From positions 142,370 to 206,369 of the forward strand of contig JAXLQJ010000002.1 in NCBI GenBank assembly GCA_046331705.1: a stretch of DNA of 64,000 bases, written 5' to 3'. Shown here one piece after another: positions 4,633 to 25,529 of the stretch. Position numbers and translations under genes: made by a program. Source of the stretch: a bacterium. GTDB taxonomy: Bacteria > JADJOY01. Position 1 is the stretch's first letter. Every line of letters starts with the position of its first letter. The notes below the pieces were generated by a model. The model did not search any database and was not told where the DNA came from. It was given only the letters and a program-made list of their open reading frames with translations.

Positions 4633-4661
4633 CCCGTGACGCCAGTACAGGGAGCGCGCGC

Positions 4662-5486
4662 TCAGTCCATGCCCTCTTCTGCCGCGGGCTCGGCGGCCGG
4701 CGGCGCAGGCTCGGGTGGCGCGACGGCGGCCGGCGGCGGAGCCGGCTCGGCGGGCTGCGCCGTTGGCGGCGCACCGCCTTTCTTCCCCTTCTTCGCTGGC
4801 GCCTTGGCGGGGGCCGCCGGCTTCGCACCGCCCTTCGCACCGGCGGACGGCGAGCTCGGGGCGCCGCTCGGCGGCGGCGCCGCCGCCGCATCCGCCTTGG
4901 CCCGCCCGGTGTTGCCCACCACCTGCGCGCGCGGCATCAGCGGGAGCGGATCGATCTGCGCGCCACCACGCAAGATCTCGAAGTGCAGGTGGGTCCCCGT
5001 CGAACGCCCGGTGGAGCCGAATCGTCCGATCACGTCGCCTTGCTTCACCTCGGATCCCGCGGAGACGTGGCGCCACACCATGTGCGCGTAGCGCGTCGAG
5101 TAGCCGTTCGGATGCTTGATCTCGATCCACTCGCCGTAGGTCTCGCTGGTCTGGCTCAGCGTCACCACGCCGTCCGCGGCGGCGAACACCGGGCCGATCA
5201 GATACTCGCCCTCGAAGTCGATGCCTTTGTGCATGCGGGTGGTCCCGAGCAACGCGCGCATGCCGAACGTGGACGTGATCCGGCCATTGGCGGGCAGACG
5301 AAAGCCCGCCGACGACACCTCCGGCGGTGCCGACTGGATCGGGATGTAGCGGTTGAGGACCGTGCAGCCCGAGACGGCGCACAGCAGCGCAGCGACCAGC
5401 AGCCCACCCGCGCGATGCCCCCACCGCGCTGACGCTTGGGATTCGCGCCCGATGCGGGGGCCGCCACGACCGGTGCTGGGGATCAT
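4662..5486 (-). CDS. M23 family metallopeptidase, probable lipoprotein, Pro/Ala-rich tail
   Basis: HKGID, YAHM, GSTGRSTGTHLHFE motifs; AVSGC lipobox; start uncertain. Confidence 0.9.
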   Translation of the reverse strand: MIPSTGRGGPRIGRESQASARWGHRAGGLLVAALLCAVSGCTVLNRYIPIQSAPPEVSSAGFRLPANGRITSTFGMRALLGTTRMHKGIDFEGEYLIGPVFAAADGVVTLSQTSETYGEWIEIKHPNGYSTRYAHMVWRHVSAGSEVKQGDVIGRFGSTGRSTGTHLHFEILRGGAQIDPLPLMPRAQVVGNTGRAKADAAAAPPPSGAPSSPSAGAKGGAKPAAPAKAPAKKGKKGGAPPTAQPAEPAPPPAAVAPPEPAPPAAEPAAEEGMD

Positions 5487-5611: not shown

Positions 5612-6553
5612 GTGAACGTGCTGCTCATCGGCGGAAGCGGGTTCATCGGCTCGCACCTCAAGGACCAGCTGCTGGCCGCGGGCCACCGCGTGCGTTCGTT
5701 GGACCGGGTGCCGGAGCGGTTCCGCCCCGATCCGCCCGAGGTCGAGCACCTATACGGCGAGGTCGGCAACGAGGCGCTCCTCGACGTCGCGCTCGCGGGG
5801 ATCGACGCCGTCCTTCATCTCGCGTGGTGCACGGTTCCCAAGAGCGCCGAGGACGATCCCACCTTCGACATCCGCTCGAACCTGGAGCTCACCACCGAGA
5901 TCCTGAAAGGCGTGCTGCGGCACCGCGTCCCGCACATGGTGTTCTTCTCCTCGGGCGGCACGGTCTATGGCCCCACCTCGCGGGCGCCGATCCCCGAGTC
6001 CCACCCCACCCAGCCGATCTCCACGTACGGCGTCACCAAGCTCGCCGCCGAGAAATACGTCGCGGTGTTCGCTCGGCGTCACGGCTTTCGCGCGACGATC
6101 CTGCGCAGCTCGAATCCGTACGGTGAGCGCCAGGACCCGCGCGCGGCGCAAGGCGCCATCACGGTCTTCCTCCACCGCGCGGCGATCGGCGAGCCGATTC
6201 GCATCTGGGGGGACGGCGAGGTCGTGCGCGATTACGTCCATGTCCGGGATCTCGCGAGCGGCGTGCTCGGCAGCCTCGAGCCGGACGACCAGCCGGTGCG
6301 CGTGTTCAACCTCGGCGCCGGCGTGGGCGCCAGCCTGAACGAGATCGTCGCTCACGTGCGCGCGGCATCCGGCCGCGACGTGCGCGTCGTCCACGAGCCC
6401 GCGCGGCCGGTCGACGTCCCCTGGAACGTCCTCGACGTCAGCGCCGCCGCCCGCTGCTTCGGCTACGCGCCGCGGGTGTCGCTGGCGCAGGGGATCGAGC
6501 GCACCTGGCGCTGGATCTCGGAGCTCGAGCTGCGCTCGCCCGCGGGCGGATGA
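5612..6553 (+). CDS. NAD-dependent epimerase/dehydratase (GalE-like)
   Basis: GGSGFIG, SSGGTVYG, YGVTK, RDYVHV. Confidence 0.93.
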   Translation: MNVLLIGGSGFIGSHLKDQLLAAGHRVRSLDRVPERFRPDPPEVEHLYGEVGNEALLDVALAGIDAVLHLAWCTVPKSAEDDPTFDIRSNLELTTEILKGVLRHRVPHMVFFSSGGTVYGPTSRAPIPESHPTQPISTYGVTKLAAEKYVAVFARRHGFRATILRSSNPYGERQDPRAAQGAITVFLHRAAIGEPIRIWGDGEVVRDYVHVRDLASGVLGSLEPDDQPVRVFNLGAGVGASLNEIVAHVRAASGRDVRVVHEPARPVDVPWNVLDVSAAARCFGYAPRVSLAQGIERTWRWISELELRSPAGG

Positions 6554-7092
6554 TGCGCGGCCCGGTCTTCCTCGATCGCGACGGCGTCATCAATCGTCGC
6601 CGGGTCGGCGACTGGGTGCGCCGCCCCGAGCAGCTCGAGCCGCTGCCCGGCGCGCTCGCCGCCATCGCGCGGCTCACCGCGCACGGGCTCACGCCCGTGG
6701 TGGTCACCAATCAATCCGGGATCGGGCGCGGCGTGATGAGCTGGGCGGACCTCGAGAGCGTGCACGCGCACCTGCGAGAGCTCGTCGCGCGAGCCGGCGG
6801 CGAGATCCGCGCGATCTACGTCTGCCCGCACGCGCCGAACGAGGGCTGTGCTTGTCGGAAGCCCGGGCTCGCGCTCTTCGAGCGGGCCGCGACCGAGCTG
6901 GGGCTCGACCTGCGTGCCGCCACCATGATCGGCGATGCCGCTTCCGACATCGCGGCGGCGCGGGCCGGCTCGTTCGCGCGCGCCTTGCTGGTGACCGATC
7001 CCGTGGATGGGTATCCGCGCGACGCACCGGCGCCGGATCGCGAGTTCGTGTCGCTCGCCGACGCCGTCGAGTACGTGCTCGCGCTCGACTGA
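6550..7092 (+). CDS. gmhB: D-glycero-D-manno-heptose 1,7-bisphosphate phosphatase (HAD-IIIA)
   Basis: FLDRDGVIN, VTNQSG, CPH...CACRKPG, MIGD; ATGA overlap with upstream gene. Confidence 0.85.
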   Translation: MMRGPVFLDRDGVINRRRVGDWVRRPEQLEPLPGALAAIARLTAHGLTPVVVTNQSGIGRGVMSWADLESVHAHLRELVARAGGEIRAIYVCPHAPNEGCACRKPGLALFERAATELGLDLRAATMIGDAASDIAAARAGSFARALLVTDPVDGYPRDAPAPDREFVSLADAVEYVLALD

Positions 7093-20319: not shown

Positions 20320-20496
20320 ATGAACGCCCAAACCACCACCTCACGTTGCCGCTGCGCGTCCTGCCACGGCGAGGATCGCCACTGTGGCGAGACCGCGGCC
20401 TCGTCGCGCCCTTCACGAACCGAAGGCCAGCCCGCGCGCTGCTGCTGCGGCCCGCGCTGTGGCTGCGGCGAGCGGTGCGATTGCGCGCCCGCCTGA
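20320..20496 (+). CDS. Metallothionein-like small Cys-rich protein (58 aa)
   Basis: 11 Cys and 2 His in CxC/CCC clusters; GGAGA RBS; followed by an 11-bp hairpin at 20511-20535. Confidence 0.65.
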   Translation: MNAQTTTSRCRCASCHGEDRHCGETAASSRPSRTEGQPARCCCGPRCGCGERCDCAPA

Positions 20497-20680
20497 GGCC
20501 TCGCCGCGCCCGCGGGCCTCGTCGCGAGGCCCGCGAGCGTGGGTCTTCCCTCACTCGGCGGCGACGCCGTCGTCCCGCCGACGCGTGCCGCGCCAACCGC
20601 GGTGCGCGTTGGCGCCAACGCACGGATGCGATCCGTGCGCGAATTTCACGAAATGTCGCGCGCCACCGTCAACGCGTCGA

Positions 20681-20695
20681 TGGCACTCGCCTTGC
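20681..20695 (+). promoter_or_regulatory. Sigma54 (-24/-12) promoter
   Basis: Consensus TGGCAC-N5-TTGC, 60 bp upstream of the ORF at 20756. Confidence 0.7.
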
Positions 20696-20755
20696 GAAGC
20701 CCCCGTTCCACGCGAACCAGCAGCGCTCGTTCACCACACCAATCAGGGGGGATCG

Positions 20756-21175
20756 ATGGGACGTTCGAAGAACTGGATGAAGAGTCTCGGCGCAGGTTTC
20801 TTGCTCGCGACGGGCCTGGCGGCCTCGCCCGGCGAGTGCCCGCCACCGCTGCCCTACCCGTCGTCGTTCGTCGCTTGCGATTGCCACGGCGACATCTCGG
20901 TCGGCTACACGGGACACAGTCACATCGTCACGCAGACCTACACGTGCAACGGCGGCCCGCGCGACGGCTGGGTCGACCTCTACCGCGTCAACTACGGCGG
21001 CTCGTCGACCCACGTCGGCTACTGCTCGTTTTCCGCACCTGGCTTCGGGGTGCCCGCGCAGCCGTGCAGCATCGAGGATTGGAACTCGGGCGACTACTAC
21101 ACCGCGAGCATCGGCGTTTACTACGACGGCAACGGATGCGGTGGTCTCTACAACGACGCCGCCGACTCGCCCTGA
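20756..21175 (+). CDS. Secreted Cys/Tyr/Gly-rich small protein
   Basis: Signal-like N-terminus, 7 Cys, beta-rich; AGGGGGG RBS. Confidence 0.7.
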   Translation: MGRSKNWMKSLGAGFLLATGLAASPGECPPPLPYPSSFVACDCHGDISVGYTGHSHIVTQTYTCNGGPRDGWVDLYRVNYGGSSTHVGYCSFSAPGFGVPAQPCSIEDWNSGDYYTASIGVYYDGNGCGGLYNDAADSP

Positions 21176-21215
21176 CGCACTCGCTTCTCGCGCCGTCGCC
21201 CTGGTATAGGATGGC

Positions 21216-21397
21216 GGCGCGGCGGCGCTCCCTCGAGCCGGCAGCCTGCGCTTTCGAGCACGAGGCGCCTCCGCGGGGTTACCCCGCGGCATGAATCCCA
21301 CCTGGGCATCCCATCGCGCGATGCCAAGTGCGCGCGGCAAGCCGCACGCACGTCTCATCGCGCACGACGAGTCTCGTCGAGGAAGCGCCGCCGCGCC
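21216..21397 (+). ncRNA. Retron msr-msd-like non-coding RNA
   Basis: 21-bp inverted repeat with 1 mismatch (21216-21236 / 21377-21397); AGC at 21236-21238; hairpins at 21244-21266 and 21271-21289; long imperfect hairpin at 21316-21363; lies just upstream of a retron-type RT. Confidence 0.8.
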
Positions 21398-21436
21398 TCT
21401 CGCGCACCCCGGGCGACGCGCCCGCGCACCCGCCGC

Positions 21437-22798
21437 ATGAACGGCGCCGACCACGCGGCGAAGGCGCTCGCGGACGCGCTGCTCGCCGGGGAGTGGACGC
21501 TGCTCGCCTTGCGCGCTCGCGCCAGCGAGCTCTTCGATCGGCGGGTCCGCTGGCTCGATCCGGTGCTTCGCGCGGTGCTCCGGACGTATCCCGCGGCGCC
21601 CCGCGATGCGCGCGACTCGCTCGCGCGTTTCCTGGCACCCGGCTTGGAGCGCATCCGGGCACGGCTCGATCCGCCGCGGCTACCGGCGATTCGCCATCGG
21701 CTGATCGACGAGCCCGCCATGGCCGAGGCGAGGCGCTGGCCGGTTCCGACGATCGCGACCTCGAGCGCGCTGGCGGCGTGGCTCGGCGTCACGCCGGCCG
21801 AGCTCGACTGGTTCGCCGATCGACGCGGCACGGCGGCGCGCTCGTCGAGCCCCGGCTTGCGCCACTATCGTTACCGCTGGCTCGCCAAACGCTCGGGTGG
21901 TTGGCGCTTGCTGGAGATTCCGCGACCGCGGCTGCGCGCCATCCAGCGACGAATCCTCGCCGAGATCCTGAATCACATCCCACCCCACGTCGCCGCGCAC
22001 GGCTTTCGCCGCGGGCACTCGGCGCTCGGCCACGCGTCGCTGCACGCCGGCCGCGCGGTGGTGATCCGCGTCGACGTGGAGGACTTCTTCCCTTCGATCG
22101 CCGCAGGTCGCGTCCACGGCGTGTTTCGCGCGGCCGGCTATCCGGAGGAGGTGGCCCGCGTGCTCACCGCCCTCACCACCCATCGCGCGCCGCCGGGGCT
22201 CGCGCGCGAGGCAAGCGCACGCCACGCCGCCGCACACCCGTGCGATGGCACCCACCCGCTTCGACAGCGTGAGGGCTGGCGGGCCGCGCGTCGGCTCGCG
22301 AGCGCCCATCTCCCTCAGGGCGCGCCCACGTCCGCGGCGCTCGCGAACCTCTGCGCGTTCGGGATGGACGTGCGGCTCTCGGCCCTGGCGAGTGAATGCC
22401 GTGGCCGCTACTCGCGCTATGCCGACGACCTGGCGTTCTCGGGCGACTCCGAGCTCGCGCGCGGCGCCGCGCGGCTGCTGCCGCGGATCGCCGCGATCAT
22501 CGCGGACGAGGGATTCCGTCCCAATCTGCGCAAGACCCGCGTTCTGCGCTCCAGCGCGCGCCAGCGCTTGGTGGGGCTCACGATCAACGCGCGCCCGAAC
22601 GTCGCACGCCACGAACGCGACCGCCTCGAGGCGATCCTCACCAACTGCGTCCGGCACGGCCCGGCGACGCAGAATCGGGCGAATCACCCGGACTTTCGCG
22701 CGCACCTCGAAGGCCGCGTCGCCTGGGTGGGCTCGGTGAACCCACGCCACGAAGCACGCCTGCGCGCACTCCTGGACGCCGTCGACTGGAGCTGCTGA
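21437..22798 (+). CDS. Retron-type reverse transcriptase
   Basis: KRSGGWRLLEIP, AHGF, HASLH (NAxxH-like), DVEDFFPSI, LPQGAPTS, YSRYADD, QRLVGL (VTG-like). Confidence 0.93.
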   Translation: MNGADHAAKALADALLAGEWTLLALRARASELFDRRVRWLDPVLRAVLRTYPAAPRDARDSLARFLAPGLERIRARLDPPRLPAIRHRLIDEPAMAEARRWPVPTIATSSALAAWLGVTPAELDWFADRRGTAARSSSPGLRHYRYRWLAKRSGGWRLLEIPRPRLRAIQRRILAEILNHIPPHVAAHGFRRGHSALGHASLHAGRAVVIRVDVEDFFPSIAAGRVHGVFRAAGYPEEVARVLTALTTHRAPPGLAREASARHAAAHPCDGTHPLRQREGWRAARRLASAHLPQGAPTSAALANLCAFGMDVRLSALASECRGRYSRYADDLAFSGDSELARGAARLLPRIAAIIADEGFRPNLRKTRVLRSSARQRLVGLTINARPNVARHERDRLEAILTNCVRHGPATQNRANHPDFRAHLEGRVAWVGSVNPRHEARLRALLDAVDWSC

Positions 22799-22855: not shown

Positions 22856-25198
<2,343 letters not shown>

Positions 25199-25202
25199 GG
25201 CT

Positions 25203-25529
25203 TCACTCCGCCTCCATGGTGAGCAGGAGCGGCATGCCCGCTTCCCGTGCCAGCTTGGTCGCGACCTCGAGCTTGGTCTCGGCGATGTCGCGGATGTAGA
25301 CGCCCGCGACACCGACTCCCTTGGTGTGCACGTGCAGCATGATCGCGGTCGCCTCCGTGAAGTCCTTGCGGAAGACCTCCATCAAGAGGTGCACCACGAA
25401 TTCCTGGGTGGTGTAGTCGTCGTTGTGCAGCAGCACCTTGTAGAGGCGCGGCTTCTGGGTCTTGGCGCGTTCGCGCAGCGCGAGCTCTTCGTCGCGCTCG
25501 ATCTCGGGCGGGCGTTGGTTTTCACTCAT
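25203..25529 (-). CDS. clpS: Clp protease adaptor ClpS
   Basis: YKVLLHNDDYTTQEFVV, MLHVHTKG. Confidence 0.97.
   Translation of the reverse strand: MSENQRPPEIERDEELALRERAKTQKPRLYKVLLHNDDYTTQEFVVHLLMEVFRKDFTEATAIMLHVHTKGVGVAGVYIRDIAETKLEVATKLAREAGMPLLLTMEAE

Follow-up and report, generated by a model that had tools for sequence, protein, structure and literature searches.

Effector-less retrons are an unexplained part of retron biology. In the classification of Mestre et al. (2020, PMC7736814), stand-alone cassettes made of an msr-msd RNA and a reverse transcriptase (RT) are described for one branch of clade 2 and for clade 11, and for such orphan retrons the authors write that it "remains to be determined" whether unknown effectors encoded in trans are used or another function is served. 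The same account holds that most genomes carrying orphan retrons are without homologues of the known retron partners, and that vertically inherited retrons have perhaps been domesticated. Here a locus of this kind is described from a 64,000-nt stretch of DNA, called the window below (contig JAXLQJ010000002.1 of assembly GCA_046331705.1, positions 142,370 to 206,369 of the forward strand), of a bacterium assigned to the GTDB lineage JADJOY01. With a probability of roughly 85%, the locus represents a complete retron of two parts, an msr-msd non-coding RNA (ncRNA) and an RT, with a promoter of its own, and belongs to the widespread effector-less lineage known as clade 11 or "outgroup".

A 2026 survey of the SPIRE collection (PMC13712802) divides clade 11 into clade11-A and clade11-B by the ncRNA models OutgroupA and OutgroupB and gives it no accessory gene in its description. 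According to this survey the group is enriched in Bryobacterales, Micrococcales, Mycobacteriales and Planctomycetota, and its novelty is judged low. An experimental retron census (PMC10849725) states in its text that each RT clade was tested, with "intermediate production from the rest", a phrase that is not taken here as evidence of multicopy single-stranded DNA (msDNA) for clade 11. In the literature on retron clade 11, and in that since 2020 on stand-alone, orphan or effector-less retrons, no functional study of the lineage was found.

The cassette of the window was delimited by inverted-repeat scanning, RNA folding and a covariance model, R1, built from a MAFFT alignment of 34 regions upstream of related RT genes. 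Its parts, in window coordinates, are:

21202..21212, plus strand: promoter-like -10 element, TG-extended; the end of its hexamer, at 21207-21212, lies 2 nt ahead of the start of the RNA model.
21214..21399, plus strand: retron ncRNA gene (msr-msd with a1/a2), 186 nt, a full-length match to model R1.
21216..21236, plus strand: a1, the 5' arm of the closing inverted repeat, 21 nt.
21237, plus strand: candidate branching G (putative 2'-OH primer), in an AGC motif at the inner end of a1.
21240..21269, plus strand: msr hairpin 1, seen in the minimum free energy fold; its sequence and length differ between lineages.
21270..21290, plus strand: msr hairpin 2, GGGG-loop-CCCC, a likely RT recognition element with a predicted RT-binding role.
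21316..21363, plus strand: msd hairpin, 48 nt (inverted repeat I2, interrupted by a 4x4 internal loop), from which the stem-loop in the predicted msDNA would be copied.
21376, plus strand: G opposite the candidate branching G, the first template base as predicted from the retron paradigm.
21377..21397, plus strand: a2, the 3' arm of the closing inverted repeat, placed by inverted-repeat scan and covariation.
21437..22798, plus strand: ret, a 453-aa retron-type RT with an intact open reading frame (ORF); N-terminal helical bundle (residues 1-76), linker, and RT fingers, palm and thumb.

The RNA of the window matches model R1 over positions 1-182 of 182 (cmsearch, 114.6 bits, E 1.4e-16), and this match is the sole one reported in the 8.17-Mb genome, where 150 of 19,389 first-look candidates were scored; the genome has a single RT copy and a single reported RNA copy. 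The a1 and a2 arms are 95% complementary over 21 nt with a spacing of 140 nt, and the core of the second hairpin (21271-21289) consists of 9 bp, all complementary. Folding of the 188-nt RNA gives -115 kcal/mol, against -89.1 +/- 4.5 for shuffled sequences (z = -5.8, equalled by 0 of 200 shuffles), and the complementary DNA strand of the msd hairpin folds at -24.9 kcal/mol (z = -2.9). The preliminary description of this DNA, made from the sequence alone, had pointed to a 21-bp inverted repeat with one mismatch and an AGC at its inner end, two msr-like hairpins and a 48-nt msd-like hairpin with a 4x4 loop; the repeat was found where it had been placed, and the hairpins were all recovered by the inverted-repeat scan and the fold. 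It had also named a 453-aa RT with YADD and LPQGAPTS motifs, both of which are present in the ORF at 21437-22798, and had put the start of that RT 40 bp after the structured region, where 39 nt are measured from the end of a2. The msr-msd-ret architecture that it proposed is supported by the retron-class RT, the covarying upstream RNA and the opposing G residues.

Related loci were gathered to examine the RNA comparatively. A word-index protein search scored 8000 candidates, 6928 of them at E <= 0.001, and the 120 family proteins among the matches listed are 336-545 aa long and 46-72% identical. In the species-genome collection at least 590 RT loci were confirmed, from which the best-scoring 80, a biased sample, were retained; these fall in Acidobacteriota, Pseudomonadota, Planctomycetota, Actinomycetota, Myxococcota and Dormiibacterota. 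The MAFFT alignment of the 34 upstream regions displays arms whose sequence differs by lineage and a variable first hairpin, along with a near-invariant GGGG-loop-CCCC hairpin, a two-tier msd hairpin and a conserved run into a2. From these 34 sequences RNAalifold predicted 29 pairs, and compensatory changes occur in 21 of these. Searched over 84 sources (1,006,908 bases, both strands), model R1 gave exactly one match in 82; two of the loci (L003 and L005) are one contig, hence the figure is 81 of 83 distinct loci. The matches include 48 sequences from outside the training set, and 80 lie directly before the RT on the same strand. One model took in all RNA-matched loci, as a single conserved structure. 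An ungapped inverted-repeat scan picked up only 39 of 81 loci, a figure that reflects the scan method, since the covariance model located the RNA in almost every one of these loci.

In the resulting 82-row alignment, 97.0% of pair cells are paired, compared with 37-53% when the partners are slid, and 25 of the 29 pairs carry compensatory changes; the observed values were reached by 0 of 500 shuffles. This alignment is model-fitted and leans toward R1, and the independent MAFFT and RNAalifold result agrees with it. In the a1/a2 helices, all 10 of the 10 pairs modelled show compensatory changes (81 distinct sequences), so that the covariance check proposed in the preliminary description came out in its favour for the arms and for the other stems alike. 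The second msr hairpin has 9 modelled pairs, with 96.5% of cells paired and compensatory changes in 6 pairs, and its core G and C columns are kept in 81-82 of the 82 copies. Helices 4 and 5, in the msd, are 95.8% and 99.0% paired, with compensatory changes in 9 of 10 pairs. A hairpin stands at the position of msr hairpin 1 in each relative and is too variable to align, and therefore lies outside the consensus structure. Such structure-preserving covariation across phyla indicates selection on the RNA. At single positions, 21237 is a G in 78 of 82 aligned copies, with the preceding A kept in 77, and 21376 is a G in all 82. Retron transcripts are described as having "two opposing G residues" (Fig. 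2 legend, PMC7736814), of which G21237 and G21376 are the predicted counterparts.

The protein is of the retron class by sequence and by structure. Besides LPQGAPTS it carries RYADD at residues 327-331, in which Y328, D330 and D331 are invariant among 30 family members. Region X (NAxxH, conserved most strongly at H) and region Y (VTG, conserved most strongly at G), as defined in PMC7736814, both occur in variant form: HASLH at 199-203 aligns with the NATPH of Ec86 and has an invariant H203, and LVG at 378-380 aligns with the VTG of Ec86, G380 being at least 90% conserved. In Pfam the RT matches RVT_1 alone (63.9 bits). PADLOC ranks RT_other first (522 bits, residues 4-452) and RT_outgroup second (495 bits, over the full model length), followed at some distance by RT_XIII (289 bits); RT_Ec107-like scores 173 bits, and retron RT models overall range over 140-522 bits. 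All 14 of the best sequence matches in the PDB are retron RTs, headed by Ec86 (E 2e-50 by profile) and followed by Ec67 and Ec78; the 17 best Foldseek rows are likewise retron RTs, with 7v9x_A at the top (E 9.7e-17). As sequence and structural relatives, retron RTs stand well ahead of the RTs of group II introns and diversity-generating retroelements (DGRs). The AlphaFold model (mean pLDDT 91.5) consists of a four-helix bundle (residues 1-76), a flexible linker and the RT, which has an insertion of about 40 residues (between 248 and 292) relative to Ec86; family members differ in how long this insertion is and in its sequence.

It is very improbable that the element does not work, whether as a decaying remnant or as an RT of another class, such as that of a group II intron or a DGR, with a chance structure upstream. 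The NCBIfam retron models score the RT below their own cut-offs (159.7 versus 235), and the Rfam scan gave no retron family, only chance-level minus-strand matches to tfoR (E 0.94) and TLS-PK4 (E 9.1). Relatives with a stop or frameshift (L008, G045, G047, G003) could also be cited in its favour. Against it stand the intact ORF with all catalytic residues kept, the covariation across phyla, which shows selection on the RNA, and the retron RTs as nearest sequence and structural relatives. The DGR form of this reading was rejected, there being no second copy of the RNA region in the genome; the only other match there spans 50 nt with 78% identity (E 0.0013). Among the relatives, otherwise full-length members have single in-frame stops in L008, in G045:C1:2585538-2586845 (TGA) and in G047:C58:7177-8487 (TAA), which may be sequencing errors or pseudogenes, and at about 8898-8900 of L086 (G003:C23) the RT frame changes near codon 423, as seen from two tblastn pieces in different frames, which reflects an assembly error or the beginning of decay.

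The cassette also appears to have its own start of transcription. In 49 of 78 related loci a hexamer resembling a -10 box has its end 1-14 nt ahead of the RNA, compared with 2 of 78 for a control window placed 50 nt further upstream; because the hexamer recurs before the RNA in this way, the cassette is read as carrying its own predicted promoter, and the promoter-like element of the preliminary description is thereby backed by comparison across 78 loci. A generic scan for sigma-70 promoters and terminators found nothing. Metatranscriptome contigs from four runs in three studies match at 100% identity over 21127-21390, 21903-22135 and 22425-22760, and are not counted as proof of transcription, as they are of low depth and RNA libraries may contain DNA. 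By their labels, the DNA sequencing runs in which the stretch occurs are metagenomes of activated sludge, wastewater, sludge and anaerobic digesters.

Several observations weigh against a complete, self-promoted retron of the clade 11 lineage. An R1 match is missing from L067, which has 166 nt of upstream DNA only, and from L002, in which the 3' half has diverged; in L036 the RNA match (5754-5934) is on the strand opposite the RT, and in L074 the match (5142-5315) is some 650 nt upstream of it. The minus strand of the RNA region folds better than the plus strand (z = -7.8), so that folding energy by itself does not set the strand of the RNA, which is set instead by the RT gene and the covariance model. 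Two of the metatranscriptome contigs, low-depth and possibly DNA-derived as they are, start upstream of the proposed promoter. In the portions of the literature available, no report of msDNA was found for a named member of the effector-less lineage. Finally, the probable assignment to clade 11 is drawn from PADLOC model names and taxon range rather than from placement in the published tree.

By the retron paradigm, one transcript would begin a few nucleotides before a1, and pairing of a1 with a2 would bring G21237 beside G21376. The RT would bind the near-invariant msr hairpin at 21270-21290 and prime DNA synthesis from the 2'-OH of G21237, so as to copy the msd leftwards from 21376 through the hairpin at 21316-21363. 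The predicted product is a branched msDNA that carries a stem-loop and measures about 60-80 nt. Strong comparative signals in the sequences lead us to infer msDNA synthesis at this locus.

The surroundings of the cassette contain the following further features:

20681-20695, plus strand: sigma-54-type element TGGCAC-N5-TTGC, an exact consensus, 60 nt before the 139-aa ORF.
20756-21175, plus strand: 139-aa ORF with an N-terminus that is signal-peptide-like by eye.
22856-25312, minus strand: ClpA ORF (TIGR02639, 1059 bits against a cut-off of 993), with a ClpS-like gene next to it.

The window neighbours of the retron are SnoaL-like, TetR, ECF sigma, ClpA, ClpS-like, LPG synthase and S8 protease genes, and the stops of the RT and of the convergent ClpA gene are 57 nt apart. 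No mobile or defence genes flank the locus, and the sole PADLOC matches come from ClpA, through generic AAA+ similarity. The ECF sigma gene is immediately followed by a 58-aa cysteine-rich ORF (20320-20496, plus strand), the C-terminal end of which is kept in a same-genus species (G002); it has no PADLOC or NCBIfam match and may encode a zinc-binding anti-sigma or a metallothionein-like protein.

A linked partner was sought by clustering all stop-to-stop ORFs of at least 70 aa within 6 kb on either side of the RT in 82 loci. The only families widely shared are the RT itself (82) and frames overlapping it. The next family occurs in 14 of the 82 loci, at scattered distances and on either strand, and comprises PAS/GGDEF/histidine-kinase proteins; ABC ATPases, short-chain dehydrogenases, MFS transporters and pirins make up other recurrent neighbour families. 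Among small ORFs (at least 30 aa, within 1.2 kb) the largest family covers just 5 of 82 loci, and only four longer proteins match the RT at E <= 1e-40, with no common added domain. With no neighbour family shared in the 82 loci and fused forms almost absent, the "orphan" reading is right.

Three neighbouring genes were considered as partners and rejected. The 139-aa ORF is without a counterpart in G001, although the retron is retained there, and has no match in PADLOC or NCBIfam; it is present in G003 (77% identity) and removed by a deletion in G002. ClpA adjoins the RT in the host phylum only (7 of 82 loci in its cluster), and its AAA+ matches are generic. In L005 (G001) a 403-aa gene lies between the RT and clpA (5717-6928, minus strand); it encodes a membrane protein with a zinc-ribbon-like N-terminal part, has a weak rhombosortase-like match (28 bits, where the cut-off is 84), and does not occur in the window. 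The preliminary description thus holds for the surroundings in that there is no adjacent effector gene nor a consistently co-located one in the homologous loci, no defence island or mobile context, a convergent clpA stop 57 bp from that of the RT, and an upstream gene preceded by a sigma54-type promoter sequence of its own. Its further option, an effector fused to the RT, found no support, the N-terminal part being a 76-residue helical bundle that lacks an informative match, and the longer forms being four in number.

A related reading, and an improbable one, is that the retron is self-contained, with the N-terminal helical domain (1-76) or the insertion of about 40 residues (about 249-290) serving as an effector or output module. 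The domain is a hallmark of the family, being covered by RT_other and RT_outgroup and not by RT_XIII or any other retron model, and it is confidently modelled (mean pLDDT of 83-97 in 10-residue blocks over residues 1-90); as for the insertion, Ec86 has none between residues 248 and 292. The bundle, at 76 residues and four helices, is nonetheless without a catalytic signature and without a Pfam match, and an Atlas search with the N-terminal 100 residues was uninformative, with nothing above chance but the own family and a best non-self TM of 0.46. The variation of the insertion in length and sequence within the family also speaks against a role as an output module.

With respect to an effector encoded elsewhere, it is possible, though less likely than not, that the element is an anti-phage or stress sensor whose unlinked effector is either trans-encoded or an ordinary host protein held in check by the RT-msDNA particle. 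Every retron of known function, as far as the available accounts describe them, acts in defence via an effector, and an option of this kind is raised by Mestre et al. (PMC7736814). The family is distributed as an accessory gene, with 8 carriers among 61 Bryobacteraceae genomes sampled, counting the centre genome that was chosen as a carrier (at most 28 candidates were scored per genome). Among the relatives of the host, RT sequences share 64-67% identity, against 90-92% for the adjacent ClpA. The loss in G002 (same genus, 90% complete) fits this reading as well: the flanks are joined, about 2.2 kb are missing (window about 20568-22744), and the last ~17 RT codons are left. The deletion site, L088 (G002:C3) at about 4634-4746, marks the removal of the 139-aa ORF, the ncRNA and the rest of the RT, and because the flanks are joined with those last codons in place, the retron is taken as ancestral at this site and lost in G002 by deletion. 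On the other side, no candidate partner was found and no defence genes lie nearby, and the general lack of known partner homologues in orphan-retron genomes reported in PMC7736814 points the same way. Phages are nearly without the family, with one distant match (34% identity) in 50,697 records, and plasmids carry it rarely (15 of 72,556 records, 5 of them at >=43% identity, 4 of which are Burkholderia replicons of 0.88-1.44 Mb).

The evolutionary record bears on a different proposal, that of a domesticated retron with a non-defence role, in which the msDNA or the ribonucleoprotein would act as a regulator or cofactor under mainly vertical inheritance; this is possible too, and slightly less likely than the sensor. 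The RT tree (83 rows) clusters by phylum, with 7 label changes against a minimum of 5 (shuffling gave 43.9 on average, and a count this low in 0 of 200 shuffles), although the 80 tree loci are the best-scoring of at least 590 and hence a biased sample, and transfer within phyla would also give such clustering. The small, uncultured GTDB phylum of the host has six species genomes, of 5.5-8.4 Mb, and the RT is found in 4 of them. In these four the element keeps a fixed chromosomal site, flanked by the ECF-sigma region and clpA, and the order SnoaL-like, TetR, ECF sigma, ncRNA, RT, ClpA, ClpS, LPG synthase, S8 protease is kept in three relatives. The conserved predicted promoter of the element, the sequence conservation of the msr hairpin and the msd stem base across phyla, and the suggestion by Mestre et al. 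(PMC7736814) that vertically inherited retrons may have become domesticated are in keeping with such a role, whereas patchy occurrence and the clean loss in G002 speak against an important housekeeping one. What is left of the odds, beyond a sensor with an unlinked effector, a domesticated retron and a self-contained one, goes to other explanations or to none. As a separate observation, Myxococcus qinghaiensis (G044) has an RT of the family (655 bits) together with further retron-type RT matches of 272 and 242 bits and a split one of 180/126 bits, so the effector-less lineage coexists with other retron RT genes in one myxobacterial genome.

We commit to the view, an inferred one, that the retron is an accessory element rather than a core gene, with an RT-msDNA particle that would act with an unlinked conserved host partner or alone. 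A more specific proposal, which we regard as unlikely on balance, is that the retron has no need of a dedicated toxin, and that the RT-msDNA particle serves as a ligand or cofactor of a conserved host component, in an old, mostly vertical, dispensable module that is not an abortive-infection system. The msDNA hairpin and the msr hairpin are conserved in sequence across phyla, and the proposal, if true, would give the first retron with a non-defence function.

To the question of effector-less retrons the locus contributes an RNA structure, a predicted promoter, a candidate branching G and a putative template G, all conserved across six phyla; the finding that no gene is linked in the 82 loci, even when ORFs as short as 30 aa are counted; and a tree that follows phyla for an element that is yet dispensable. 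The role of these retrons is open to testing, as cultured carriers exist among the loci, namely Pseudoduganella violaceinigra DSM 15887, Nocardioides pinisoli, Myxococcus qinghaiensis, Corallococcus exercitus, Anatilimnocola sp. and Sulfuriferula sp. The compact cassette, with its predicted msDNA of ~60-80 nt, could also be a further source of RT-DNA for editing tools, a use of modest value.

Set against the known systems, the locus stands apart from the tripartite defence retrons (types I-XIII), in which the effector is adjacent or fused, as it is neither at this locus. With Retron-Eco1 (Ec86) it shares the RT fold (Foldseek E 9.7e-17, TM by target 0.67), the aligned NAxxH and VTG regions, and a1/a2 arms with a branching G, here a candidate. 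Ec86 differs in being a tripartite defence system with a linked effector (the title of 7v9x reads "in complex with its effector"), and its 320-aa RT, 24% identical, is without the N-terminal bundle and the ~40-aa insertion. Type XIII (Mx162, Mx65, Sa163, Ne144; RT clade 10) resembles the family in its high-GC soil-type hosts, Myxococcota included, and in signs of vertical inheritance, and among the PADLOC models only RT_other and RT_outgroup score above RT_XIII. The differences lie in the RT_XIII model, which is without the N-terminal domain of the window RT, and in the linked SWIM zinc-finger and HEAT/ARM genes that Table 1 of PMC7736814 lists for type XIII: none occurs among the window neighbours, and no such family is shared in the 82 loci.

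The closest likenesses are to the retrons that are themselves described as stand-alone. Retron-Eco5 (Ec107), of the clade 2 branch, is likewise two-part, without an effector and at a non-prophage chromosomal site in the account of PMC7736814, and differs in its RT clade, as seen in the scores of RT_Ec107-like (173 bits) and RT_other (522 bits), and in the extra N-terminal domain of the window RT; the Ec107 branch is given as mostly Gammaproteobacteria in PMC7736814 (clade 2) or Bacillota in PMC13712802 (clade2_Ec107like). With the stand-alone cassettes of clade 11 the locus shares a retron-type RT, an upstream msr-msd RNA and the lack of a linked or fused effector. The best PADLOC models are RT_other and RT_outgroup, and PMC13712802 uses the name "Outgroup" in connection with clade 11; the same survey names Bryobacterales, Actinomycetota, Planctomycetota and Pseudomonadota, all of which are found here too. 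Mestre et al. (PMC7736814) describe clade 11 as "essentially restricted to Actinobacteria", whereas the family here is far wider. Nothing differs in kind, and the host belongs to a GTDB phylum that has only six species genomes; the effector-less lineage is already published, and the locus probably adds to it a member in a rarely sampled phylum.

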